From Peptococcia bacterium (GTDB lineage Bacteria; Bacillota; Peptococcia; Peptococcales; SKKY01), in contig OZ245787.1 in the NCBI GenBank assembly GCA_965228015.1, forward strand, positions 1,377,536-1,441,535: a DNA stretch of 64,000 nucleotides. The letters run 5' to 3'. Shown piece after piece: positions 2,985-51,435 of the stretch. The position numbers and the translations under genes were made by a program. The notes under the pieces were generated by a model. The model saw only the letters and a list, made by a program, of their open reading frames with translations. It had not been told where the DNA came from and made no database searches. How positions within the stretch are numbered: the stretch's first letter is position 1; each line of letters opens with the position of its first letter.

Positions 2985-4372
2985 GGTTCTACAATAAATG
3001 TTGGGGTGGCAAAAACCATTCTGACATTTATTTGCGAAAAAATACAGAGCATTGGGTAAGTCTATATTAGAGAACACCCACTGTAATCTAAGGAGGAATT
3101 TACTTATGCTCTGTAATAACTATTATATTAAAAAATTAATTGGTTTTAAAGGGATAATTTTAGAACAATTAGAAACTTCTTCTGATTCAATGTCCTTTTC
3201 TTTTTCTCTGGAGATTAAAACTCACAATTACCCCAAATGCCATCAACAAACCAGTAAAGTTCATGATTACAGAATTCAAATGATAAAAGATATTTCCATC
3301 TCAGGGAAGAAAACCTACCTTTACTATAAAAAAAGAAGGTACGTTTGTAATCACTGCAATAAAAAATTCTACGAAAAAAATGATTTTCTCCCCCGCTATC
3401 AAAGAATGACCAGCAGGCTGATAAAATACATAATTACTCGAATGAAAAATGTTTACTCTGTATCTGATATTGCCAAAGAGAATAATATTTCACCATCAAC
3501 GGCTCTCAGGCTTTTTAGATTCATAAACTATTCCCTAACAAAATTGCCCGAAGTAATCTCTATTGATGAATTTAAAGGTAATGCCGGGGGCAAAAAAGTA
3601 CCAGTGCATATTAACTGATCCCCAAAACAAGAAGGTACTTGATATTCTTCACGGAAGAGAACAACACATTTTATCGGACTATTTCAGGAAATTCAATGAC
3701 AGGGATAAAGTAAAATACTTCATTATGGATATGTGGCAACCTTACAAGGATATTGCTGAAACATATTTTAAAAATGCAACTATCATTATCGATAAATTCC
3801 ATTTCATTAGGCAGGTCACTTGGGCATTTGAAAGAATTAGGAAAGATGAGCAAAAGAAATTTGCCAAGGAAAGGCGAAGATATTTCAAAAGAAGTCGCTC
3901 CCTTCTCTTAAAAAGAATGAAGTATTTAACTCCTGAAGAAATTGACCAGGTAAATGTTATGCTTGCTACTTCTGAGAAACTGCAAAAAGCTTATATGTTA
4001 AAAGAAAAATTTTATAACTTTGTTGACAGCAGTGATTTAGAAAGTGCAAAAAAGAATTTGAAAGCCTGGTATATGTTTGTTATGTCCTGTGAGCTTGAAG
4101 AATTCGATAAATGCTCCAGAACCATTTTCAACTGGCAGAAATATATTCTTAATTCATTTACTTGTGCTTATACTAACGGATATACAGAAGGAGTTAACAA
4201 CAAAATTAAGGTTTTAAAAAGAAATGCTTATGGTGTAAGAAATTTTTGGAGATTCAAAAACAGAATAATGCACGTAATGAACTAAAAACAATTTAAATAA
4301 GTACCGCATTTTTCAATGCGGTACTTATGGAATCTAATCTAATTGGGTTACCCCAACATTTGACAAAGAACC
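2985..4372 (+). mobile_element. ISL3-family IS, copy 1, with 8-bp target duplication ATTTTATA
   Basis: Ends GGTTCT...AGAACC with IR core AAATGTTGGGG. ATTTTATA at 2977-2984 and 4373-4380. Confidence 0.93.
3106..4285 (+). pseudogene. ISL3 transposase, +1 frameshift
   Basis: Zn-finger region, SIDEF, DMW and TNGYTEGVNNKIK motifs. A6 at 3592-3597 versus A5 in the intact copy at 19419-20597. Confidence 0.9.
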
Positions 4373-4496: not shown

Positions 4497-5429
4497 TCAC
4501 ACCAAAGCATCCCCTCCTGCGCTGCTAACTCGATTGCGGCCTTCTTGTTTAGCTCTGTACAAGGCTTTGTCGGCCTTTTCTAATATTTCCTGAGGTCTTG
4601 AATCCATTTGTGGAGCCATTGTGGCAACTCCTATACTAATGGTTACAAATTTACTCACCTTTGAAGCTTCATGGGGTATTTTTAAATTCTCAACACCCTT
4701 GCGTAATTCTTCTGCAAGTTTCATAGCACCTTCATGATTTGTACCCGGAAGAGCACAGGCAAACTCCTCACCACCCCAACGGGCAACAAGATCTGCACCT
4801 CTCTTCAATAAGTTTTTAAGAGCATAAGCAACCATCTTAAGACACTCATCTCCCTCAAGATGTCCATAAGTATCGTTGTAAATTTTGAAAAAATCCAAGT
4901 CCAACATTAGCACAGACAATTTTTCTTCATATCTTCTGGCCCGGCTCCATTCAGCCTCTAAAATTTCATTAAACTTATTTTTATTAGGAATTTTAGTAAG
5001 TCCATCCAGCATACTATTTTCTTTAATTACATCCCTTAGCTTTTTTAATTCAATATGATTTTTAACCCGGGCTTTTAGCACAGGTATGCTGTAAGGTTTA
5101 GTTATATAGTCGATGGCGCCGATTTTAAGGCCTTTTTCTTCATCTGCTTCCTTACTTAAAGCAGTAACAAAAATTACTGGAATTTCTTTAGTTTCCGGCA
5201 AACTTTTTAAAACCTCAAGAACCTGGAATCCATTCATTTCTGGCATCATTATATCCAAAAGAATAAGATCGGGAACCGGAAGCTTTGTTGCCATTTCCAA
5301 GGCCTCCTCACCACTTGTAGCAACTCTTATTTGACATTCATCTTGCAAGGCAGTGCCAAGCACACGAATATTCATTAGTGTGTCATCTACAATTAGAATT
5401 AAAGGTTTTTCATTAATATTATTTCTCAT
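4497..5429 (-). CDS. PleD-like response regulator diguanylate cyclase (REC-GGDEF)
   Basis: REC motifs VDD, LDIMMP, DYITKP. DLDFFK, I-site RGAD and active site GGEEF. Probable ATG at 5429 overlaps the kinase stop. The stop codon now falls in the IS3 right end. Confidence 0.9.
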
Positions 5430-7190
5430 CAGCGTCCATCCTTTGTAACAATTTTTCAACTTGATTTCTTGCCCCAGGATAATTAAAGTTATCCAAATTT
5501 AACTTAATTTTCGAAATTTCCTCTTCAAGACCAGGACATACAGATGCTAATATTTCAATTTCTTCTATAAGGGTATCTGAAATGAAAGCATTTGAGTTAA
5601 CCATATCCTTTAAGATCTGCATTTTTTCCAGCAATTCCAGAGATACTTCTGCTCCCAGGTTTGTACAATATTTAAAAATCCCTTTCGTTTCTTTGAGTAT
5701 TTCTAAATTTTCCGGTTCGGCAATTTTTCTCAAGGGAAGCTTAATAATAAAAGCTGTTCCAACCAAGTCAATACTACTGTTTTCTACATGGATACTTCCA
5801 CCCATTAATTCAACCAATCCTTTTACTATTGCCAGACCAAGGCCTGCCCCTTTATGGGTTCTTATTGTTGAATCTTCAAGCTGGGTAAATCCTTGAAAAA
5901 TTTTGTTCTTTTTATCTTCAGGTATTCCTACCCCTGTATCAGATACTATTATCTGAACTAAATTATTCAAATTTTTTAGGGTAATTCGAATCTCTCCGAT
6001 AGATGTGTGTTTTACTGCATTCCCTGCAACATGAAGTAAAATTTGTTTTAATTTATCTTCATCCCCAAGATAAATATCTTTATATCCTTCTTTTATATCT
6101 ATCGTAAATTTTAGTTTTTTCTTTTGGATTTCCTCTCTATAATATGTTTCTATTTCTGAAAGAATTCTCTCAAAATTCACTTGTTTTTCTTCAAGGCTGA
6201 TTTTCCCAAGCTCTATGTCTGCAAAATCCAGAATTTCATTTATTACTCTTAGTAAGTCCCTGGCGGATTCTTGTATGTCATTAAAGTATCCAATAAGCTC
6301 ATCTTTATTGGAGCCTGTAAGTTCTTTTTTAATAATGTAGCTAAGACCAATTATTCCGTTCATCGGGGTGCGGATTTCATGGCTCATATTTGCCAGGAAC
6401 ATACTTTTTGTTAAATTTGCTGATTCTGCCGCTTCTTTTGCAGCTTTCAATTCTTCTTCTGTGTTAATTTTTTCTGTAATGTCCTGAGTTGAGCCTACAA
6501 GATATTTTATTTTTCCCATTTCTTCTATAGGGAAAAGCTTGACGTGCCAGGTTTTTTCCCTCCAGGGAGATCATATGTTTCAGTATATGAGAGATTATCT
6601 TTTTGCTTAAGGCATTTATGATAGTAGGAAGAGAGCACCGCTCCCAAATTCTCACCATATACTTGTTCAGGAGTTTTTCCAAGTATTTCATTAAGAGGAA
6701 CTCCTGTTTTCTCCTGATAAATTCTATTCACTCTAAGATGTAAGAAATCATAGGCACCTGTTATTTTATTATGCACTGGTTGTACAAGAAACATTGACTC
6801 TTCAGTGGCATTAAATACAATTTCATATTCCTTGAGGATAAGCTCATTTTCAATTGTATCAATAAATAAGGTCACAAATTTATTAAGACCTGTTTTAAAA
6901 ACAGAAACTCTAAAATATTTTCCCGTTTCTTTAACAAAAACTGTTTCTAGAAATGGTTTCCCTGTTTTGACAACTTCTCCATAATTTTTAATTAGATTTT
7001 TATCTGTACCCGGAAGCACTTGCAGAACAGATTTATTTTTAATTTCATTAAATAAAAGTCCGGTAAGCTCTTCGAATTTCTTATTTCCCTCGAGAAAAAT
7101 GTAATCCACAGGATTTCCGAACTCATCAAAGACCATCTCATGAAGAACATAAGCTTCTTGCAATTGATCAATAATATTATTTTTATCCAT
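5419..7190 (-). pseudogene. PAS-PAS histidine kinase split by a frameshift
   Basis: 7190-6525 holds two PAS-like folds and 6519-5419 holds [20 protein letters not shown] and GAGLGL. One A is missing in the run at about 6552-6557; restoring it gives [18 protein letters not shown]. Confidence 0.82.
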
Positions 7191-11900: not shown

Positions 11901-12408
11901 TTAACAGGAAACGTAAACCCGATTAAAAGAATAGAAACCAATCGTATCTATAAAAAGTCCCATTATAACTCCTGAAACAGTTAGTATTGGCATATAGCTA
12001 AAAATCCGGAAATTTTCCATTATAATTGCTGCTGCCAAAAGCTGACCAGCATTATGAGCTATTCCACCGACAACGCTGATACTTTAAATACTAATAACAT
12101 CCTTGCCGTATTTATAAAGAATAGACATCAGGGCTCCGCTTAGTAAACCTCCAGTAAGGCTGAAAAATTAAACTGCCCAAACTTCCCGCGAAGAGACTTA
12201 CCAAAAAACTACGCAAGATTATTATAATTATTGTATCTTTAAAACCTAAAAAATATACTCCGTACAAGGTTGTAATATTTGCCAAACCAAGTTTTACACC
12301 GGGAATTGGTACCGGGGCAGGAATGTAACTTTCCAATATACGCAAAGAAAGAGCCAGGGAGATTAAAATTGCAGTCCTAGCAATTTTACTGGGTTTAATT
12401 ATTCCCAC
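11901..12408 (-). pseudogene. Gx transporter (heptaprenyl diphosphate synthase component I-like) membrane protein, disrupted
   Basis: LESYIPAPVPIPGVKLGLANI motif. Frameshift near 12160, then an in-frame TAA before ISVVGGIAHNAGQL. Confidence 0.82.
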
Positions 12409-12766
12409 CTCCTGATTCTTCTATATAAATAGCAGTTTTATAAGGCAGACAGATTATGCTCTCACCAATCTTAGATATTTCTCCAGTTTTAACACATATC
12501 TGATTTGGGCAGGTTGAGCTTTCCATAAAAATTTTTCCTCTTTCTGCAACAACATGAAAGGATCTGTTCTCATCAAAATTAAAATGAAATTCTTCTTTTT
12601 TCATATCCAGGGATAATTTTATTTTTTTAACAACCTGTCCATCTACTTCAATTAATGCTTCCTTGCTGTCAGAGCTATCTTTATTAATAATTGATGCTAT
12701 TGTAAAAATGGAAAGGAAGACCAAAAGAATAAATATAATATATTTGTCACCTTTTTTTAATTTCAT
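12395..12766 (-). CDS. NusG domain II-containing membrane-anchored protein
   Basis: MKLKKGDKYII signal anchor and STCPNQICVKTGEISKIGESIICLP three-Cys motif. Canonical neighbour of ApbE and Gx genes. Confidence 0.88.
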   Translation of the reverse strand: MKLKKGDKYIIFILLVFLSIFTIASIINKDSSDSKEALIEVDGQVVKKIKLSLDMKKEEFHFNFDENRSFHVVAERGKIFMESSTCPNQICVKTGEISKIGESIICLPYKTAIYIEESGGGNN

Positions 12767-13761
12767 ATTTGCCTCTTTTTACTAGCTGGAACTCTTGTTC
12801 AGAAATTCCGGAAGTCAAAAATATTTCATTATTTTTTGTAACAAAAACTCCTTCTGCTCCTTCATAATCTTCTAAAAGTTTTATTCCCTTATCAAGTCCA
12901 AGGGTAAAAGCAGCTGTGGAAAGAGCATCTCCGTCCAGGGATTTATCTGATATTACCGAAACGCTTAATAGTTCATTTTCCACAGGGTAGCCGGTTTCTG
13001 TATCAAAAATATGATGATATATTTTTCCCTTTTCTTTAAAATATCTTTCATGTATTCCCGATGTAACCAGTGACTGATTTTTTAAACTTGCTATCCCCAG
13101 AAAATCGCCCCTTTTCATAAAAGGATCTTGAATGCCAAACTTCCAAACATTTTCTCCAATGGCATATACACCCCCCAAGATTCAGGATGGCGGTATATAT
13201 TTCATTATTTTTTAATATTATTACCGCTCTGTCTGCTGCATATCCTTTTGCTATAGCTCCAAAATCAGCAAACATTTCTTCATTTTCTATATGTATTATT
13301 CCGGGACTAATTGTTTTAATTTTATTATAGTCAACTAAGGAAATGCATCTTTCCATTTCTTCTTTTTGAGGAATTTTATTCTCTTCTCCAGGGGAAATAT
13401 TCCAGAGCTTTGTCAAAGGGCCAACAGTAATATCAAAGGCTCCCTGAGTAATTTCTGAAAAATACATAGACTTCTCTAAAAGATACACCTCTTCTTCATC
13501 CAGATAAACAAGTTCGCCTCCTCTTATCATCCCTGCAGTAAAATTATTTTCAATGCTTTTAATTTCATTAAATACTTCTTTAAAAACTTTATCTGTATTA
13601 TCTTTATTTAATTCATTTTCATCCCCATATAAAATTACTTCTACAACAGTACCCATATGGAATTCAGTTTTTCTTACTTTTTCATTTTTTTCATCGGTAC
13701 TGCATCCAAATAAAATTAATGAAACTATTAATAATGTAACTGCCAAAATTTTATTATTCAT
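12747..13761 (-). pseudogene. apbE: FAD:protein FMN transferase ApbE lipoprotein, frameshifted
   Basis: Lipobox LFGC, MGTVV, GAFDITVGPL, DFGAIAKGYAAD, TSGIHERYF, YHHIFD and ADALSTA-like motifs. Frame break at a G6 run near 13172-13177. Confidence 0.9.
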
Positions 13762-13773
13762 ATTAATTTCCTT

Positions 13774-14558
13774 TTATACTGCTCTTACGGAGCACAAGGG
13801 AGACACCAAAGGAATTCCCCTTTTATCATAATTTACCTCTGCTTTGACACCATATACTTTTTCCAGCATTTCTTCTGTTATAACTTCATGGATTAAACCT
13901 GAACTAAAAGGCTGACCATTCTCATCAATAATTACAACATGATCTGCGTAACGACAGGCAAGATTAATATCATGGAGAATCAAAATTATATCCACCTTTT
14001 CTTTTTCTTTGACTTTTTCCAATAACTGGCAAAGCTCCAGCTGTTTTTGAAGGTCAAGAGAATTGACTGGTTCATCCATTAGTATTAGTTTTGGTGTTCT
14101 GACCAAGGTTTGAGCAATAAATACAAGCTTTTTTGTCCACCACTAAGTTCATCAAAATTTCTAAAAGCAAGGTCTTTTATATTTAATGTGTCCAATATAT
14201 TCATTACCAGATCAACATCTTCATCAGACATTTTATACCCCAAATCAGGTAGACGTCTCAACATTACCATTTCAAAAATAGTAAGAGTTGAAGTATCTAA
14301 ATCCATTTGAGGAAGATAAGACATAAACTTTATCTTCTCTTCCAGTTTCATGTTTGCAAGACTTTTATCTTTATAAAAAATTTCTCCTTCATGTTTTAAA
14401 AGGCCAAAGATAGACTTTATTAATGTGGATTTCCCTGCCCTATTTGGTCCAAGAATTACATTAAGACCTTCTTTGAATTCAACATTTAAATTTTTGAAAA
14501 CATGATGACATTTGCCTCTTTTTTTATAAGCAAAGGATAAATCTCTTACTTTTAACAT
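13774..14558 (-). pseudogene. ABC transporter ATP-binding subunit (FecE/BtuD-like), frameshifted
   Basis: Degenerate Walker A GPNRAGKST, LSGGQK, MDEP and LHDINLA split over two frames at about 14110. Confidence 0.85.
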
Positions 14559-15589
14559 TACATTGTCCTTATTTTCGTAAAGATTTTTGTTACAAAAAAC
14601 GGAATTCCTATAACTGCTGTTACCAGACCAATTGGAAGTATTACTCCAGGAATAATAATTTTACTTACTAAAAAGGCAAAAGAGAGCACAAAAGCTCCCA
14701 CTAATCCTGATAAGGGCATGAAAAATCGTTGGTCTTCTCCTGTTAATTGCCGGGCAACGTGGGGAGCAATAAGGCCTACAAAGCCTATTGTTCCCCACAA
14801 AACTTACTGCAACAGCTGAAAGGAGAGAAGAAATCAATATAGCTAATCTTCTTACTTTACCCGTATCAACCCCAATGCTTTTAGCTTTTGAATCATCAAG
14901 GGTCATTGCTGTTAATTTCCAGGCATTTTTAAATAAAATAAGAAAACATACTACCAAAACAAATAAAACGATATAAAATTTACTCCAGGTAATTTTTAAC
15001 AAACTTCCGAAATTCCAGAAAATTAAACTCTGGAGCTGATCCTCATCGGCAATATACTGTAATATCATTGTTAATGCATTGAATAGGAAATTTAGAGCAA
15101 TACCAAATAAAATAATTGCAGTTTTCCCGATTTATTTTTGAAGGAAAAACAAATATATAGCACCAGCAACAATTAAAGCAAAAACAAAAGCATTTACAGT
15201 TACCACCAAAGTTTCAGAAACTTTAAAAATACTGGCATTAAGAATTAACCCTAAGGCCGCCCCAAAAGAGGCTGCAGCAGAGATGCCAAGGGTATAAGGG
15301 CTTGCAATAGGATTTCTGAGGATAGTCTGTATTTCACAGCCACCTATCCCCAGAGCTGCTCCTACCACAATCGCCATCAGGGCCATTGGCAGTCTGATGT
15401 CTTTTATAATAAGGGGAGTATTATTATCACCTTCATTAAATATGAGAACTTTTAATATTTCCTTTATTAATATTGATGATGAACCTGTAGATATGTTAAA
15501 CAAAAACAATAGCACAAGGGCTGCCAAGAATATGGAAATAATTATTATTCTGTTTTTATTAATTTATTGTAAGAATCCCTATTGGACAT
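14558..15589 (-). pseudogene. FecCD/BtuC-family permease, multiple frameshifts
   Basis: IRLP, RNPIASPYTLGISAAA and GTIGFVGLIAPHVAR motifs spread over at least three frames. Confidence 0.85.
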
Positions 15590-17107
15590 TACTTGTATCT
15601 ACCTTCGTAAACCATGTTATAATATCTGTATCTAACAGCATATATCTATCAAAAAGCTCTTGTAATACAGCTTCTAGATCAAGGTTTGTAAACTCTTCAG
15701 GATAAAATAACTTTGCCATTTTTAAAGTTGGATAAAATGCATATATTGATCTGCTTGTTGAATGGGCAAATTCATAAACATTTCCATTTTTCACAGCTTG
15801 AAGATTTGACCATCTATTACGATTTAGAATATCAAAGCTTGGTTCTTTTTTCTCTCTTAGAATGTCAAGCCAACCATCATTTACACCACTTAAAATTACA
15901 AATTCAGGATTTTTCTCTAAAACATATTTCGGATCAAGGGTGTTGCTTGCTCCCCCAGACGCTGCAATATTTAAAAGAACTTCATCTGCAATATTTTTTC
16001 CTCCAGCCACTTTTACTGGAAGACCCCATCCACTCTTGCTAGTTGCTGTTGAATCAAATACTTGCGAGTAACCAGATTTTTCATAATAAACAGTAGGAAT
16101 GTTTTCTTTTTTATTTAGGATTTTAGATGCAATTAGTTTAAATTGGTCATCTATAAAAGCTGATGCTTCATTTGCTTTCTCTTCTTCTTGGAAAATTTTT
16201 CCAAGTATCTTCATTGTATCTGTTACAGATGTTTCAAGTTTTTTCCGGGGACATCTACTAAAATAATTTTAATTCCAGCACTTTCCAAAACATTTTCAAC
16301 TTCAAGAGCATATTTATGAGCTCCCATAGCTGAGTTTGCAACAAGAACTTCCGGTTGCATAGCTAGTGGCATTTCCAAATCGAAAGGAGCATTATGATCA
16401 GAAATCTGGCCAACATGTTCCATATAATTACCAACAACTGGTGTGTATAACTCTGCATACTTATTTAAACCATGACCGCCATCTTGCCCGGAGCCAACTA
16501 ACATGTTAAAAGCATCTTCACCTTTTAACGGGATAATATATTCAAAAACATCCATCGTACTAACTGCATAGGTTGATAAAGGCAACGGGATCTCTACTTC
16601 TCTACCTTTAGCATCAGTTATTATTACTGAGCTGGATTTTTCTGCTTTTTCTGGCATTTTATTACTATCTATTGAAGGAAGAGGATAATCTTCAGCCAGT
16701 CCAATATTTTCTTTAGACCAACCAAAATCAAGCAAATCTCCTCCAGCTTTTTCTATTGATGTGGCAACAGAATTTAATATCCCTGCCATTGTGATGGAAG
16801 CACCTGAAACACCATCTACATCAAGAGATTGCTTTTCGATAATTAACTCCGGCAGCTTTTCAATTGCTACAGTACCTACCCCATCTGTTTCTGAGTGATC
16901 ACCAATAATTACATCAACAATTTTTCCATCTTTATCTACCTTAGTTGTAACTTCAATTTTTCCATGATAACCATCAACAGTTTCTGTATATATACCTTCC
17001 TTAAGAGTTTTATCCTGCTTATCAGCACAACCTGCTAATACAAAAACAAGGGATAATGACAAAAATAACAGCAGCGCAACCTTACAAAAATTTCTAGTCT
17101 TTTTCAA
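15579..17107 (-). pseudogene. Lipoprotein: FMN-binding (flavinylation) domain fused to a Fe-siderophore/cobalamin-type solute-binding domain, single frameshift
   Basis: Lipobox LAGC. GYHGKIEV..SET..DVDGVSGASIT matches the FMN_bind [ST]GA[ST] motif (16796-16807). The rest is a type III SBP. One A is missing in the run at 16239-16244; restoring it gives about 509 aa. Confidence 0.82.
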
Positions 17108-17136: not shown

Positions 17137-17983
17137 TTATACTTTCCAAATGATGTGTCCCGTAACCGCAACACTCTCTTCGTTAATCATTCCATCTTCA
17201 GCAATTTTTTCTAAATATCTTTTGATTTCATTTTTATCTTCATTACTAAGCTGATTTTTAATCGAAAGCTTATTTGTATAGCTTTCAAAAACTTCATTTA
17301 AAGGCTGTGAACTTTTCCAATTTCTTTCGTTATAACTTACCTCTGGATAATAGCCCATATTCCAGAGGATATTAAAAGCATAATAAATTTTATCTTCGAG
17401 AATCCCTGTTTTGCCTTCCTCTTTATTAATCAGATTAAATAATGCATCTTCAACCTTGGATTCCCGTTTGACCCAAGCACTTAAGTAGCAATAACCAGAG
17501 GAAGCATCACACATTTTTTTAATGTTTCATAATTATGTATCGCTGGAGACATAGATGCGAAAACCAAGTCAAACTTTTTATCCCATTGTTTTTCTTCAAG
17601 ATTAATATCTACCCAGTTAACTTTCATTGGATGAACATTTTCCAGACCAAGTTTTGTGGCTTTATCTTGCAAAATTTTAAGCATATTTTCAGAAATATCC
17701 ATGGAAAATACTTCTTGGCGCTTTTCCGCCATTGGAATTGAGTGGGTTCCTGGACCGCAGCCAATATCTAAAAACCTTGGCTTTGTGGTGCAAAATGTTT
17801 CTTTCCGTCATAGATTCAATTAAAATGCTTGTTTTTTCTCCTTGTCCTTTAAATTTTGATTAAAAGAGTCCGCGCGTCCATTCCAAAACTCTTCACATGC
17901 TGTAAAATCCATATCACAGTAGCTCCAAAGATTTTTCCAATATTCCAGTTTATTTTTGTCTTCTTATTTCTTTAATAAATCAC
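17137..17983 (-). pseudogene. Class I SAM-dependent methyltransferase, fragmented
   Basis: Motif I LDIGCGPGTHSIPMA, DISENML and FDLVFASMSPAI occur across several frames. The start is approximate. Confidence 0.8.
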
Positions 17984-18024
17984 TACCTTTCCTTTTATAC
18001 ATTTCATGATAAAAATTTTTATAT

Positions 18025-18064
18025 AAAAAAAGGCCCCAGATTTTTAATAAAATCCAAGAGACCT
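18025..18064 (-). terminator. Riboswitch expression-platform terminator
   Basis: On the minus strand, GGTCTCTTGGATTTT-ATT-AAAAATCTGGGGCC followed by T7, upstream of the methyltransferase. Confidence 0.65.
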
Positions 18065-18144
18065 TCCTATTTTTAAGTCTTCATGATTAAGCATCCAAAA
18101 CCGATGCTTTAATGACTAATAATTATCCCATTATTGTCATAGAT

Positions 18145-18320
18145 TTCCTCTAAGGCAGGTCTCCTGGCTCACGGGTCATTCTCCCCTCAACCTTCCCAGA
18201 ACAATTAATGTTCCAGTGGTATACTGAGGTTCGTCTTCGCATACAGTGGTGGGTCCGCGTCGTTTTTAACGATCTCCCTTATTCTCCTCAAATAATTTTG
18301 AGGCACCTTAAATTCCGAAA
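18145..18320 (-). ncRNA. Cobalamin (B12) riboswitch
   Basis: The minus strand has AAGGTGC..AATAAGGGA..CGGACCCACCACTGT..CCACTG..GGGAAGG..GAGCCAGGAGACCTGCC, i.e. the conserved core elements and B12 box. Confidence 0.92.
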
Positions 18321-18469
18321 AATATTAAGTTGTATTTTGGTGTTGAAGTTATTCTAGCACAACTTTTTTTAATGCAAATTATTTGCAAATTCCAAAAATA
18401 TTTTAAGTTTTAACACTTTGCCTTGAGGGTATAATTAAATAAGCACAAGATAAGAAGGAGGAAAGCATT

Positions 18470-19331: not shown

Positions 19332-20718
19332 GGTTCTTTGTCAAATGTTGGGGTAACTCAATTAGATTAGATTCCATGAGTACCGCATTGAAAAATGCGG
19401 TACTTTTTTAAATTGTTTTTAGTTTATTACGTGCATTATTCTGTTTTTGAATCTCCAAAAATTTCTTACACCATAAGCATTTCTTTTTAAAACCTTAATT
19501 TTGTTATTAACTCCTTCTGTATATCCGTTAGTATAAGTACAAGTAAATGAATTAAGAATATATTTCTGCCAGTTGAAAATGGTTCTGGAGCATTTATCGA
19601 ATTCTTCAAACTCACAGGACATAACAAACATATACCAGGCTTTCAAATTCTTTTTTGCACTTTCTAAATCACTGCTGTCAACAAAGTTATAAAATTTTTC
19701 TTTTAACATATAAGCTTTTTGCAGTTTCTCAGAAGTAGCAAGCATAACGTTTACCTGGTCAATTTCTTCAGGAGTTAAATACTTCATTCTTTTTAAGAGA
19801 AGGGAGCGACTTCTTTTGAAATATCTTCGCCTTTCCTTGGCAAATTTCTTTTGCTCATCTTTCCTAATTCTTTCAAATGCCCAAGTGACCTGCCTAATGA
19901 AATGGAATTTATCGATAATGATAGTTGCATTTTTAAAATATGTTTCAATAATATCCTTGTAAGGTTGCCACATATCCATAATGAAGTATTTTACTTTATC
20001 CCTGTCATTGAATTTCCTGAAATAGTCCGATAAAATGTGTTGTTCTCTTCCGTGAAGAATATCAAGTACCTTCTTGTTTTGGGGATCAGTTAATATGCAC
20101 TGGTACTTTTTGCCCCCGGCATTACCTTTAAATTCATCAATAGAGATTGCTTCGGGCAATTTTGTTAGGGAATAGTTTATGAATCTAAAAAGCCTGAGAG
20201 CCGTTGATGGTGAAATATTATTCTCTTTGGCAATATCAGATACAGAGTAAACATTTTTCATTCGAGTAATTATGTATTTTATCAGCCTGCTGGTCATTCT
20301 TTGATAGCGGGGGAGAAAATCATTTTTTTCGTAGAATTTTTTATTGCAGTGATTACAAACGTACCTTCTTTTTTTATAGTAAAGGTAGGTTTTCTTCCCT
20401 GAGATGGAAATATCTTTTATCATTTGAATTCTGTAATCATGAACTTTATTGGTTTGTTGATGGCATTTGGGGTAATTGTGAGTTTTAATCTCCAGAGAAA
20501 AAGAAAAGGACATTGAATCAGAAGAAGTTTCTAATTGTTCTAAAATTATCCCTTTAAAACCAATTAATTTTTTAATATAATAGTTATTATAGAGCATAAG
20601 TAAATTCCTCCTTAGATTACAGTGGGTGTTCTCTAATATGGATTTACCCAATGCTCTGTATTTTTTCGCAAATAAATGTCAGAATGGTTTTTACCACCCC
20701 AACATTTATTGTAGAACT
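19332..20718 (-). mobile_element. ISL3-family IS, copy 2, no target duplication
   Basis: Near-identical to 2985-4372 in reverse. The terminal base is changed (AGAACT) and the flanks TTAAAACT / TTTATTTA differ. Confidence 0.92.
19419..20597 (-). CDS. ISL3 transposase, apparently intact (392 aa from ATG 20597)
   Basis: Continuous frame with an AAGGAGG RBS and SIDEF, DMW, TNGYTEG motifs. Confidence 0.9.
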   Translation of the reverse strand: MLYNNYYIKKLIGFKGIILEQLETSSDSMSFSFSLEIKTHNYPKCHQQTNKVHDYRIQMIKDISISGKKTYLYYKKRRYVCNHCNKKFYEKNDFLPRYQRMTSRLIKYIITRMKNVYSVSDIAKENNISPSTALRLFRFINYSLTKLPEAISIDEFKGNAGGKKYQCILTDPQNKKVLDILHGREQHILSDYFRKFNDRDKVKYFIMDMWQPYKDIIETYFKNATIIIDKFHFIRQVTWAFERIRKDEQKKFAKERRRYFKRSRSLLLKRMKYLTPEEIDQVNVMLATSEKLQKAYMLKEKFYNFVDSSDLESAKKNLKAWYMFVMSCEFEEFDKCSRTIFNWQKYILNSFTCTYTNGYTEGVNNKIKVLKRNAYGVRNFWRFKNRIMHVIN

Positions 20719-20796: not shown

Positions 20797-21295
20797 TTAT
20801 TTTTCAATTAAAAATTTTTCCGTTATTACTGCGTCTACCCATTCTCCATTAAGTATTCCTTGATCTTTATATACTCCTACCAAAAAATAATCTAAACCTT
20901 CATAGAACTCTAGAGCTTTTGTATTTTTACTTATTACATTTAAAACTAATTTATAGAATCCTTCTTTTTTAGCTTCTTCTGCCAGATTCTCCAAAAATAT
21001 ACGGCCTATACCCTGGCCTCTGCAGTTTTTTCCTATATTATGTTGAAAGATCTGCAACTCCAGTATATGCACTTTTAAAATTAAATTTATTTAAAGAAAC
21101 ATAATCACAAACGTCTCCGGTAGCATCATCTTCAGCCACCAAAACCATATATCTGTTCTCCGTCCAAGACATTATATCAGACTCTTTTTGTATTCTGGTT
21201 TCTAAAGTTGCAACCCCAGCTTCAATACCCTGATTGAAAATCTCTGTAATTGCAGGAACGTCTTCAGTTGTTACTTTTCTCACCTTAACCGGCAT
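20797..21295 (-). pseudogene. GNAT acetyltransferase (phosphinothricin/ArsN1-like), frameshifted
   Basis: AITEIFNQGIEAGVATLETR, RGQGIGR and YEGLDY motifs. An extra base near 21040 (ACATAATATA) splits the frame. Confidence 0.8.
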
Positions 21296-21381
21296 TTCAA
21301 ACACCTCTGCATAAATATACATTCAATCGAACAATAATGTGAATGATACAATTATTTGGAAGTTTTATCAACACCTGTTTT

Positions 21382-40078: not shown

Positions 40079-40133
40079 AATCTTTCTTGATATAAAATAG
40101 TTATTATTGTAATATATTTGAAATAGAATATTA

Positions 40134-40357
40134 AAAAGTAATGATCAGGAAGTTTTAAATTTCTTTGTTGCAGAGAGCTGATGGAAGGTGAAAATCAGTA
40201 CAAGTATTTAAAATTCCGCCTGTAAACTGAGCATGATGAATATTTCCGTTGGTTACGTTATAACCGTCAAGTGGAATAGCGACAATGTTGTTATTTAATT
40301 TGGGTGGCAACGCGGGTAGACAGAACCCGTCCCATATTTTGGGACGGGTTTTTTTAT
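40134..40357 (+). ncRNA. Serine-specific T-box riboswitch with terminator
   Basis: AGAGAG/GGTGAAA stem I motifs, TCC (Ser) specifier at 40215-40217, T-box AATTTGGGTGGCAACGCGG (UGGC pairs with G73 of tRNA-Ser) and terminator AACCCGTCCC..GGGACGGGTT-T tract. Confidence 0.9.
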
Positions 40358-40389: not shown

Positions 40390-41547
40390 TTGAAAACAGA
40401 AAAATTATTAATGATACCGGGTCCAACAATGATTCCTGAAAAAATACTTAATGCAATAAATACCCAGGCTGTTGGGCATAGAACAGAATATTTTGAAAAT
40501 ATTATAAAAAATGTAACCATTAAACTTAAGAAAATATTCAGAACAAATAGAGATGTATATATTTTGACTTCTTCCGGAAGTGGAGCGATGGAAGCTTCTG
40601 TAGCAAACTTTATTAATGAAGGAGATAAAACCTTAGTATTAGTAAACGGGAAATTCGGAGAGAGATTTGTAAGCTTGAATAAAATTTATAGAGCAGAAGT
40701 TAGTGAAATAACTTATCCTTTAGGAGTTTCTGCAAATCCGGAAGATGTAGAAAAATTTCTTAAAAATAATCCAGACACTAAAGCAGTCTTTATGCAACAA
40801 AATGAGACATCCTCAGCGATACTCAATGGTGTTTTTGCAATTGCGGAGTTAGTAAAAAAATATGAAGCTTTATTAATTGTTGATTCAGTTTCAGGTTTAG
40901 GTGTTACAGAGATGAAAATGGATGAATGGGGAGTTGATGTAATTGCTGCAGGGTCTCAAAAAGCATTTATGTTGCCACCGGGATTAGCTTTCGTAGCTGT
41001 AAGTGAAAAAGCAGAGAAGAAATTGGTCTCTTGTGGTAACAAAAAGTATTATTTTTGCCTAAAAGCAGCAAAGGAAAACTTGGAAAAATCGACGACCCCA
41101 TACACTCCAGCAACTTCTTTAATTAAAGGTTTAGATGCTAGTTTAGATATGATATTAGAGTATGGAATAGAAAAAAACTATGAAAAACAAGAAAAATATA
41201 CAAAAATGCTGAGAGATGCTTTTAAAGCAATTGGTTTATCTATGGTTGTAGAAAATGAAAAGGCCGCTTCTCGTGCTGTTACAGGAGTGTATGTTCCGGA
41301 AGAAGTAAAGTGGTCTGAATTTGAGAAAATTCTTAGTGAGAAATACAATGTATTAGTTGCCGGAGGCCAGGACGAACTTAAAGGAAAAATATTCAGAGTT
41401 GGGACGATTGGCTACTTAGGAGATCTTGATATCTTATCTGGAATAGCTGCAATTGAAATGGCGCTTTATGAAGCGGGATATAAATTTGAGGTGGGCAAAG
41501 GTGTAAGTACAGCTCAAAAAATACTAATAGAGAGAGGTAGAGATTAA
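40390..41547 (+). CDS. Class V PLP aminotransferase (serine-pyruvate / SerC-like)
   Basis: [38 protein letters not shown] and TPYTP motifs. Under the Ser T-box. Confidence 0.88.
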
Positions 41548-50609: not shown

Positions 50610-51435
50610 ATGAATAAATTTAATTCGTTACTTGGCTTATCAGTAAATAAGTAGCAGGAAATTATAGAAAAAATTCCTGTTGAATTGATTTCAAGAAATC
50701 CTTTTCAGCCCAGACAGGTATTTGACAATGAATATCTTGAAGAACTTGCTTCATCAATAAAGCAGTATGGAGTTTTGCAACCAATTATATTAAAAAAGAT
50801 TTCTTCTAGGGAGTATATAATTATTGCCGGGGAATGTCGTTTTAGAGCGGCAAAATTAGCAGGCTTAACTGAAATATCATCTATAATAAAAGACTTAGAT
50901 GAAAGCGAAATGGCAGAGATTGCAATTATAGAAAATTTACAAAGAGAAAATCTGAATTATTTTGAGGAAGCGGAAGGCTTTAAGGTTCTTGCGGAACAAT
51001 TTGACATGACTCAAGAAGAAATCGTAAAAAAGTTGGGAAGTCTCAATCAATGGTTGCAAATAAGATCCGGCTTTTGAAATTATCCCCTAAAGTACGTCAG
51101 GAAATCTCCACCGAAGTATTATCCGAAAGACACTTAAGGGCGTTAATAAGGATTCCAGAGGAAGAGAATCAACTAATGATCCTAGGGAAAATATACGAAA
51201 AAAACTTAAATGTTAAACAAACTGAAGAATTAATTAATAATTTTTGTAAGAACGGAAAAACAGAAGAAAAAAGGAAGCTCTTTCGATTAAAGCTTCAAAA
51301 CCATCTGACTATAAACTATTCCAAAACACATTAAAAAAATCCATAGAAAGTATTGAATTTCTAGGCGCCAGAGCTGAGCATAGTGATGTTTTAAAAGATG
51401 ATCACTTAGAAGTTATAATTAAAATATACAAATAA
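50610..51435 (+). pseudogene. noc: Nucleoid occlusion protein Noc (ParB family), nonsense plus frameshifts
   Basis: ATG 50610, then an in-frame TAG at codon 15. NPFQPR, GVLQPI, AGECRFRA (Arg patch altered) and ENLQRENL. Frameshifts near 51040 and 51300. Lies between rsmG and parA. Confidence 0.88.

Follow-up and report, generated by a model that had tools for sequence, protein, structure and literature searches.

Substrate-binding proteins of ATP-binding cassette (ABC) importers are usually regarded as passive catchers of ligands, and control by cobalamin riboswitches is typical of btu genes in many bacteria. The CbtJKL importer of Sinorhizobium meliloti, which is riboswitch-controlled and BtuF-like and was first taken for a B12 transporter, imports Co(II) (PMC7689651). 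ApbE enzymes recognise the motif D-x-x-[S/T]-G-A-[S/T] and join flavin mononucleotide (FMN) to its last residue, with Ser and Thr both serving as acceptors (PMC12052999). Members of PF07456 constitute the EetB family, an S-component-like subunit that in Listeria exports flavin adenine dinucleotide (FAD) for extracytosolic flavinylation and that is often encoded beside apbE (PMC9973259). Flavinylated FMN_bind proteins have been linked to the reductive assimilation of metal (PMC8238504), and the FMN_bind protein SifE of Bifidobacterium breve provides an analogue from iron assimilation (PMC5449479). Here we analysed a 64,000-nucleotide stretch of DNA from a Peptococcia bacterium (contig OZ245787.1, positions 1,377,536 to 1,441,535; assembly GCA_965228015.1), referred to below as the window, in which a gene at 15579..17107 encodes a lipoprotein with an FMN_bind domain fused in front of a class III solute-binding domain. 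The gene stands in an operon behind a cobalamin riboswitch; the operon is broken in this genome and intact in close relatives.

Taken singly, an FMN_bind domain that goes with ApbE, a binding protein of class III and a cobalamin riboswitch are of known kinds; their combination is uncharacterised. Literature searches turned up neither an account of an ABC binding protein that is flavinylated nor any mention of the family in connection with B12 or cobalt, and the main text of a survey of flavinylation systems contains no ABC or binding-protein class. Our favoured, if tentative, reading is that the family serves B12-regulon importers of complexed cobalt in which the tethered flavin would reduce the bound Co(III) substrate. 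As to the form of that substrate, we lean towards chelated cobalt over a corrinoid, with the corrinoid a close second. Coordinates are positions in the window, and all genes of the operon lie on the minus strand. L-numbers denote related loci or contigs and P-numbers homologous proteins; L001 and P0001 are the intact close reference.

A flavin-binding domain fused to a class III binding protein

In the list of open reading frames (ORFs), those at 16223-17107 (294 amino acids, TTG start) and 15579-16214 (211 amino acids) abut on the minus strand in different frames. An earlier note on this DNA had held that one added A at 16239-16244 restores a protein of 509 amino acids, and this is borne out: the run reads A6, the insertion of one A gives an open frame of that length without an in-frame stop, and P0001, an intact protein of 509 amino acids that is 92% identical, is encoded by DNA with A7 exactly where the window has A6. 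Apart from this frameshift site, the gene is open. Its signal peptide (17027..17107), read from the sequence, ends in the lipobox L-A-G-C with Cys27, in agreement with the lipobox Cys reported previously.

The FMN_bind domain spans residues 38-120 (16748..16996), as delimited by Pfam and by an AlphaFold2 model in which the predicted local distance difference test score (pLDDT) of this part is mostly 80-96; the Pfam match itself (PF04205) covers residues 46-117 (E = 1.3e-13; 51.8 bits against a cut-off of 22). The flavinylation motif, D98-G-V-S-G-A-S104, occupies 16796-16816, and the codons at 16796-16807, to which the motif had been assigned, do encode S101-G-A-S104. Across an alignment of 117 homologues, the motif Asp is present in 113, the Gly in all 117, the Ala in 116 and the Thr that follows the motif in 113. 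The flavin-acceptor position is Thr in 113 homologues and Ser in 4, a set that includes the clade of the window; the acceptor is thus conserved as Ser-or-Thr in 117 of 117, whereas the Ser on which the earlier note had relied is the exception and Thr the rule. From the motif we infer that FMN is covalently held on Ser/Thr104 and attached by ApbE. The solved matches of the domain in a search with the family profile are RnfG and one of the domains of 8P2B, a multi-flavinylated protein. Export signals, assessed by inspection with no dedicated signal-peptide predictor, are of the lipoprotein type in 87 of the 117 homologues; among 25 of the other 30, most have a Cys-free N terminus of the signal-peptidase-I type (for example, those of Fusobacterium) and a few are truncated or unclear.

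The AlphaFold2 model, which was built on the 117-sequence alignment (mean pLDDT of 89.8; predicted template modelling score of 0.76), places the FMN_bind fold at residues 38-120, a low-confidence tether at about 127-140, followed by a class III fold that begins near residue 141 and ends near 505. In the alignment, the tether is variable in sequence over about residues 121-158. Pfam recognises Peripla_BP_2 (PF01497) at residues 243-446 (E = 4.6e-17; 62.6 bits against 27.5), and the solute-binding domain is wider than this stretch, extending over about residues 141-505 by model and fold search. On the basis of AlphaFold2, Foldseek and a profile search of the PDB, we annotate a YiuA-like class III (cluster A-II) solute-binding domain at residues of about 141-509 (15582..16687).

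Compared with solved structures, the family profile matches 4MO9 of Veillonella parvula (E = 3e-42) and YiuA of Yersinia ruckeri (around 1e-30) and Yersinia pestis (2e-29). Foldseek likewise ranks 4MO9 and the YiuA structures at the top (template modelling scores of 0.8-0.83, normalised to the target), including YiuA forms with Fe, with Fe-nitrilotriacetate (Fe-NTA) and with an Fe-dihydroxybenzoyl-Arg-Ser fragment. BtuF is absent among the 50 best Foldseek matches, and no BtuF model is among the NCBIfam matches of the binding protein. Scored with the family profile, YiuA and 4MO9 reach 106-148 bits, Escherichia coli BtuF 11.7 bits and S. meliloti CbtJ -1.2 bits. Judged by sequence and predicted fold, the binding domain is YiuA-like and not BtuF-, FepB- or CbtJ-like. 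Of the earlier label 'FepB/BtuF-like', the class III assignment stands, but the likeness to BtuF does not, given its 11.7 bits and the preference of the fold search for YiuA and 4MO9. The invariant motifs of the family are S183-T-M-D, G-Q-D-G-G, H238-N-A-P-F-D-L-E, Y341-Y-E-K-S-G-Y, S-G-W361-G and H449-x-T-S-R. When the proposed ligand site of Y. pestis YiuA (an Arg triad, His331 and Tyr334) is mapped onto the family, His449 aligns with the YiuA His; the mapping of the Arg triad is uncertain, and the YiuA Tyr is replaced by a Ser, after which comes Arg453, which is invariant.

Among 5.8 billion proteins searched there were 147 matches, and 113 of the best 120 are proteins of about 500 amino acids that carry PF04205 and PF01497 together; the rare single-domain matches are fragments on short contigs or reflect a masked stretch. 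Homologues of at least 47% identity are all fused, none of them having the two domains as separate genes, which bears out the fusion that the earlier note had proposed. Its description of the architecture as unusual holds against the textbook; the fusion is, however, not unique to this genome, as about 50 species-level genomes have it. A scan of one genome per species yielded 53 loci, in Clostridia, Peptococcaceae/Desulfitobacteriia, Tissierellia and several Fusobacterium species, together with single genomes of Desulfobacteraceae, Desulfobulbaceae and Oceanispirochaeta. Fused members are 47-60% identical across phyla, over both domains, and a library of 1.84 billion 50%-identity representatives contains the fused protein at full length twice, as P0019 and P0134. 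By these comparisons the family is phylogenetically scattered, yet unusually constrained. The binding domain also has unfused homologues, with an identity of about 45%, in Propionibacterium, Brooklawnia and one Veillonellaceae genome; no FMN_bind gene was found near them.

Two apparent variants were discarded. The related metagenome-assembled genome (MAG) L027, and likewise the protein P0090 (281 amino acids), seemed to have an internal deletion in the gene; the missing stretch is due to N masking. Binding-domain matches of 570-1130 amino acids, considered as other redox fusions, are tandem Peripla_BP_2 repeats; P0145, P0163, P0208 and others of this size carry two or three YiuA-like Peripla_BP_2 domains in tandem. 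In a Eubacteriaceae MAG (L049:2590-4124), the fused gene is split, as in the window, by a frameshift near residue 248.

It is conceivable that the flavin does not act on the ligand. The FMN_bind domain would then be an outlet for electrons at the surface in general, as PplA is, or a module for docking or regulation that is only incidentally fused to a binding protein. The variable tether (about 121-158), with its low model confidence at 127-140, is consistent with such a role, as are the presence of a stand-alone FMN_bind lipoprotein in the same operon at L005 and the proximity of the FMN domain to domains of multi-flavinylated electron-transfer proteins. However, the fusion is kept in Bacillota, in Fusobacteriota and in single genomes of Desulfobacterota and Spirochaetota at 47-60% identity, and all fused members fall into two clusters at 50% identity. 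Such constraint on the fused form argues for a joint function of the two domains, and we consider a separate role of the flavin improbable.

Cobalamin riboswitch and genes of the operon

The leader of the operon contains a full-length cobalamin riboswitch aptamer (RF00174) at 18137..18325 on the minus strand, which scores 100.2 bits in Rfam against a gathering score of 31.5. RNA folding places its expression platform at 18022..18068 (minus strand), where a G+C-rich hairpin followed by U7 forms an intrinsic terminator; the fold of 18018-18140 has an energy of -32.2 kcal/mol (z-score of -4.9), and none of 200 shuffled sequences was as stable. A simple terminator scan did not flag the hairpin at 18022..18068. 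On the basis of sequence and fold, aptamer and terminator together form a transcription-terminating OFF switch, by which the operon would be off when corrinoid is plentiful. Just 5' of the riboswitch, a consensus scan gave a weak promoter-like site (TTTGCA, 16 nucleotides, TG-TAGAAT; 18351..18378, minus strand); promoter-like sites in this region are no commoner than in shuffled sequence.

The riboswitch recurs in the same position in the relative L001 (112.6 bits), and riboswitch-like sequence is present on the same strand, 235-1700 nucleotides upstream of the gene, in 39 of the 53 loci. Rfam placed 10 of the riboswitch-like loci, weak ones included, above the gathering score and confirmed the absence of the element in eight others; the upstream sequence is truncated at 3 of the 14 loci without a riboswitch-like element. 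The unfused homologues of Propionibacterium and Brooklawnia also lie behind a riboswitch. The earlier note overlooked the riboswitch and, within the operon, the flavinylation genes for ApbE, a NusG_II protein and an EetB-type FAD exporter.

Control by a cobalamin riboswitch indicates that the operon belongs to the B12/cobalt regulon rather than to an iron regulon. This bears directly on the idea that the family mediates reductive uptake of iron or siderophores, with a YiuA-type binder of ferric chelates that contains its own ferric reductase and for which the link to the riboswitch is secondary. The closest solved structures are those of YiuA with iron and iron chelates, members are labelled 'iron complex transport system substrate-binding protein' in databases, L030 and L031 have a gene for bacterioferritin downstream, and flavinylated proteins have been linked to iron reduction (PMC8238504). 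Nonetheless, the riboswitch is found at 39 of 53 loci, among them those of the unfused homologues of Propionibacterium and Brooklawnia, the neighbouring genes are those of the B12 pathway and not siderophore genes, and the proposed YiuA-site residues are mostly not conserved, with His449 alone retained. No cobalamin riboswitch is known to govern the uptake of iron, and we regard this explanation as very improbable.

In the intact loci L001-L004, the order is riboswitch, class I S-adenosylmethionine (SAM)-dependent methyltransferase, binding protein, FecCD permease, ATPase, ApbE, NusG_II protein and PF07456 protein; across the 53 loci, the order of binding protein, FecCD permease and ATPase is kept in almost all cases in which the contig permits. 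The window preserves the same sequence of genes, mostly as pseudogenes. The methyltransferase (17137..17975) was recovered in two pieces by tblastn with the L001 protein, and its intact orthologue matches Pfam Methyltransf_25/31/11. Downstream of the binding-protein gene follow the FecCD-family permease (14558..15589; orthologue of 343 amino acids, PF01032), the ABC ATPase (13774..14558; ORFs of 157 and 110 amino acids, orthologue of 261 amino acids) and a lipoprotein FAD:protein FMN transferase of the ApbE type (12747..13761; orthologue of 338 amino acids, PF02424 and NCBIfam ApbE). The NusG_II-domain protein (12395..12766) is an essentially intact ORF of 123 amino acids with changes at its 3' end only, and the last gene (11907..12345) is that of an EetB-type membrane protein by Pfam (PF07456, Hpre_diP_synt_I), predicted to be an S-component for FAD export and likewise a pseudogene. 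ApbE and the PF07456 protein share an operon with the transporter at L001-L005, L007, L015 and L051, and NusG_II accompanies them in the clade of the window and at L007, L015 and L051. With ApbE and an EetB-like exporter in one operon, the operon of the window's clade encodes a flavin acceptor, the transferase and the supply of its cofactor.

Methyltransferases recur in the position before the binding-protein gene. At about 28 of 55 related loci, a protein of about 140 amino acids that consists of TrmO_N only (PF01980/TIGR00104), without the tRNA-binding C-terminal domain, is encoded directly upstream on the same strand (for example, L020:9549-9977 and L054:1008-1505), and such genes also stand beside unfused homologues; at five loci the gene lies between the riboswitch and the binding-protein gene. 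In the clade of the window, the same slot is held by the unrelated class I SAM methyltransferase (17137-17975). The occupation of one operon slot by two unrelated methyltransferases suggests a methylation step. At 17 related loci (for example, L058:8761-9216), a MarR-family regulator is encoded 5' of the TrmO-like gene, the usual order being MarR, TrmO, riboswitch and binding protein, so that the transporter may be under double control by MarR and riboswitch. At L005, an additional FMN_bind lipoprotein of 137 amino acids with the motif DGVAGAS stands alone (L005:8726-9136); its gene follows the riboswitch and precedes that of the methyltransferase, with the fused gene further downstream in the same operon.

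Candidate substrates and proposed mechanism

In the mechanism that we propose, the substrate-binding lipoprotein of a FecCD-type ABC importer would be exported and lipid-anchored, and ApbE would attach FMN to Ser104 (Thr in most homologues) after export, with FAD supplied by an EetB-like exporter that in the clade of the window is encoded in the same operon as ApbE. The flavin domain would then sit on a tether of about 20-35 residues beside the YiuA-like cleft, where it would be reduced by a putative membrane donor. From there an electron could pass to a cobalt substrate held in, or delivered to, the cleft, converting Co(III) to Co(II). This reduction would labilise or capture the substrate and make it competent for transport; permease and ATPase would then import it, and the cobalt would feed de novo B12 synthesis.

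Within 10 kb of the gene at 56 loci, genes of the early anaerobic B12 pathway were found for CbiK (10), CbiD (6), CbiA (4) and CbiJ (3), whereas queries from E. coli found none for CobU, CobS or CobT. A cytoplasmic CbiK is encoded immediately 3' of the ATPase at L034, L038 and L056, and a ZIP metal permease follows the ATPase at L012 and L047. At L017:1934-11675 the transporter is enclosed in a cbi operon, with genes for CbiK, CbiM, CbiQ, CbiO, TrmO, the FMN_bind binding protein, FecCD, the ATPase, CbiD and CbiA; no riboswitch was detected there in the roughly 5.8 kb of upstream sequence available on the 11.7-kb contig. Early pathway genes, ZIP and the cbi operon of L017 make the context lean to cobalt for de novo synthesis. 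The resemblance of the binding domain to YiuA, whose structures contain Fe, Fe-NTA or an Fe-catecholate fragment, and not to BtuF also leans towards cobalt rather than a corrinoid. The riboswitch does not separate the two, as the precedent of CbtJKL makes clear.

Several observations weigh against import of complexed cobalt with reduction by the flavin. The search for CobU, CobS and CobT, with its E. coli queries, was of limited sensitivity, and divergent genes may have escaped it. The riboswitch is lacking at all Fusobacterium loci. Most operons of the related loci encode no electron donor; a c-type cytochrome and a ResB-like gene adjoin the transporter at L007 only. At L017, CbiM, CbiQ and CbiO are encoded beside the transporter (CbiN was not detected), so that another importer of cobalt would be superfluous if it did not take a different chemical form. 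The hosts are strict anaerobes, in which free Co(III) should be rare; corrinoids, by contrast, are stable compounds of Co(III). Finally, the invariant cleft motifs of the family are not shared with YiuA, His449 excepted, so homology does not fix the ligand.

Some of these points suit a corrinoid importer better, in which the protein would fill the role of BtuF for cobamides or cobinamide and the flavin would reduce a Co(III) corrinoid to cob(II), stripping a cyano, aquo or protein upper ligand before import. Anoxic habitats hold corrinoids as their main stable Co(III) species, reduced flavins readily reduce cob(III)alamin, and human CblC uses flavin in reductive decyanation. The cobalamin riboswitch at 39 of 53 loci is also as expected for a corrinoid importer, the best NCBIfam match of the permease is BtuC, although it is marginal, and the co-occurrence of cobalt importer genes and the transporter at L017 would make sense if their substrates differed. 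Against this, the binding domain is not BtuF-like by sequence or fold, early-pathway genes are frequent at the same 56 loci at which the E. coli queries found no CobU, CobS or CobT, and CbtJKL demonstrates that a riboswitch together with a class III protein is no proof of B12 transport. Corrinoid import is therefore possible, and in our estimate less probable than the import of complexed cobalt.

Two further candidates did not help to identify the substrate. CbtJ, recovered from pSymB as a test of the cobalt reading, is unrelated to the family beyond the fold family and neither supports nor refutes that reading. A second class III binding protein encoded in tandem at L009 and L034 was considered as a true BtuF, in which case the flavin-bearing protein would have had some other substrate; it is of a generic siderophore type.

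Decay of the operon and relation to known systems

Over window positions 19331-5588, the window and L001 share 92.5% nucleotide identity, and relative to L001 ten indels in the operon break a reading frame and three codons have changed from CAA to the stop codon TAA. The methyltransferase has 1-bp indels at 17831, 17770 and 17513 and a nonsense change at codon 4; the FecCD gene has indels at 15557 and 14793 and a nonsense change at codon 153; and the EetB-like gene has a 1-bp insertion at 12162 and a nonsense change at codon 87. The remaining indels are an A7>A6 deletion at 14128 in the ATPase gene, a 2-bp deletion near 13170 in apbE, an indel at 12405 at the 3' end of the NusG_II gene and, as the sole lesion of the binding-protein gene, the A7>A6 change at 16238. 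The binding-protein gene had been described as the least damaged transporter gene, and it does have a single lesion; so does the ATPase gene, with which it ties. Six of the seven operon genes are disrupted, and the NusG_II ORF alone is open. The density of lesions is 13 in about 6 kb of operon versus 1, a frameshift in a histidine kinase gene, in the roughly 7 kb of coding sequence on its flanks, whose other indels are in-frame or compensated.

A possible objection is that the binding-protein gene is not truly broken, that its missing A is a homopolymer error of long reads and that the full 509-amino-acid protein is made. This concerns the pseudogene call only and leaves the functional readings untouched. 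The contigs that match the window belong to one metagenome assembly of long-read style, and the longest of them with this ORF measures 1,898,514 bp. Sister contigs of the same sample depart from the window by little other than indels (15 gaps and 1 mismatch in one case), and the single A7>A6 change of the gene, its sole lesion, could therefore be a read error. Runs of A or T of at least 8 are also scarce in the window (A7, 55 versus A8, 3; T7, 25 versus T8, 3). However, the operon also has three nonsense codons that arose by C>T changes and indels that do not fall in long homopolymers, the lesions are clustered in it while the flanks are nearly clean, and even with an intact binding protein the permease would retain its nonsense codon 153. 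We therefore consider it unlikely that the gene is intact. For the operon as a whole, sequencing error was rejected because nonsense codons are present and the lesions cluster, which argues that the operon is dead; with the whole operon pseudogenised, the binding-protein gene does nothing in this organism. The ratio of nonsynonymous to synonymous divergence (dN/dS) from L001 is 0.077 for the binding protein (dS of 0.55) and 0.06-0.08 for the three transporter genes at a dS of about 0.5, which points to purifying selection until recently and to a young decay.

Other features of the sequence and its surroundings were recorded. L001 has three runs of at least 8, all of which are shorter in the window. 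L061, L062 and L063 (sample ERZ25074352) are lower-coverage contigs of the same strain with inverted, partly duplicated copies of the pseudo-operon that differ mainly by indels, and these copies may be foldback assembly artefacts or real rearrangements. Two transposases of the ISL3 family (3052-4285 and 19419-20651) are 98.7% identical; a frameshift at a G5A6 run divides the first, and the second is intact (410 amino acids) and stands where synteny with L001 ends (19331). A histidine kinase with PAS, HisKA and HATPase domains (5419-7190, minus strand) lacks 1 bp at 6555, a GNAT acetyltransferase (20797-21322, minus strand) is apparently split, and a ParB/Noc-like gene (50685-51334, plus strand) is divided, with ParB_N and residues 1-32 of the helix-turn-helix (HTH) domain in the first ORF and HTH 37-100 in the next. 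The split genes outside the operon and the contig size of 1.9 Mb suggest genome decay or residual long-read errors; the recent pseudogenisation of the operon, in a genome that measures about 1.9 Mb and has other broken genes and insertion-sequence copies as well, fits ongoing genome reduction. A T-box leader (40132-40337, plus strand; 105.7 bits) lies upstream of an ORF at 40390-41547.

As the copy in the window is a pseudogene, its local importance is lowered, and the interest lies in the family. It is plausible, though still more tentative than the cobalt reading itself, that these are the first redox-active ABC binding proteins, in which a covalent flavin reduces a captured Co(III) chelate or corrinoid as an obligatory step of uptake, with the methyltransferase (TrmO_N-only or class I) as a further partner. 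A binding protein with a covalent redox cofactor of its own would add reduction of the ligand to capture of the substrate, and under riboswitch control this reduction would belong to the acquisition of cobalt or B12. If true, extracellular electron transfer would be tied directly to the acquisition of cobalt and vitamin B12 in anaerobes. Cobalt and B12 shape competition in gut, oral and sediment communities, and the mobilisation of cobalt by anaerobes is poorly known; the hosts of the family include the tractable Fusobacterium nucleatum and Desulfitobacterium hafniense.

Among known systems, YiuA (Y. pestis and Y. ruckeri) and the V. parvula 'FepB' 4MO9 are the best match, in sequence and fold, to residues of about 150-505. 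They share with the family the cluster A-II/class III type, a length of about 340-370 amino acids for this part and FecCD-type ABC partners, and His449 aligns with the His of the proposed YiuA ligand site. They differ in having no FMN_bind domain; identity is only 22-25%, and the invariant motifs of the family are absent from YiuA, which is annotated in an iron/siderophore ABC transporter, whereas the family described here is controlled by a B12 riboswitch. BtuFCD of E. coli resembles the system in its FecCD/BtuC-type permease, its ATPase and its class III binding protein, but BtuF is about 100 residues smaller, has no flavin and scores 11.7 bits with the family profile. CbtJKL, located on pSymB with its riboswitch, is likewise a riboswitch-controlled class III ABC importer; CbtJ, however, scores -1.2 bits, has no hhalign match to the family and lacks a flavin domain. 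Listeria PplA, RnfG/NqrC, multi-flavinylated proteins and the FMN_bind proteins of iron-assimilation clusters (those of P19-associated systems and B. breve SifE) contain the same domain and the motif D-x-x-[ST]-G-A-[ST], and, as proposed here, are exported, depend on ApbE and EetB and have a proposed role in extracytoplasmic metal reduction. In those systems the flavoprotein is a polypeptide of its own or belongs to a redox complex as a subunit, whereas the present one is joined to an ABC binding protein under the control of a B12 riboswitch.

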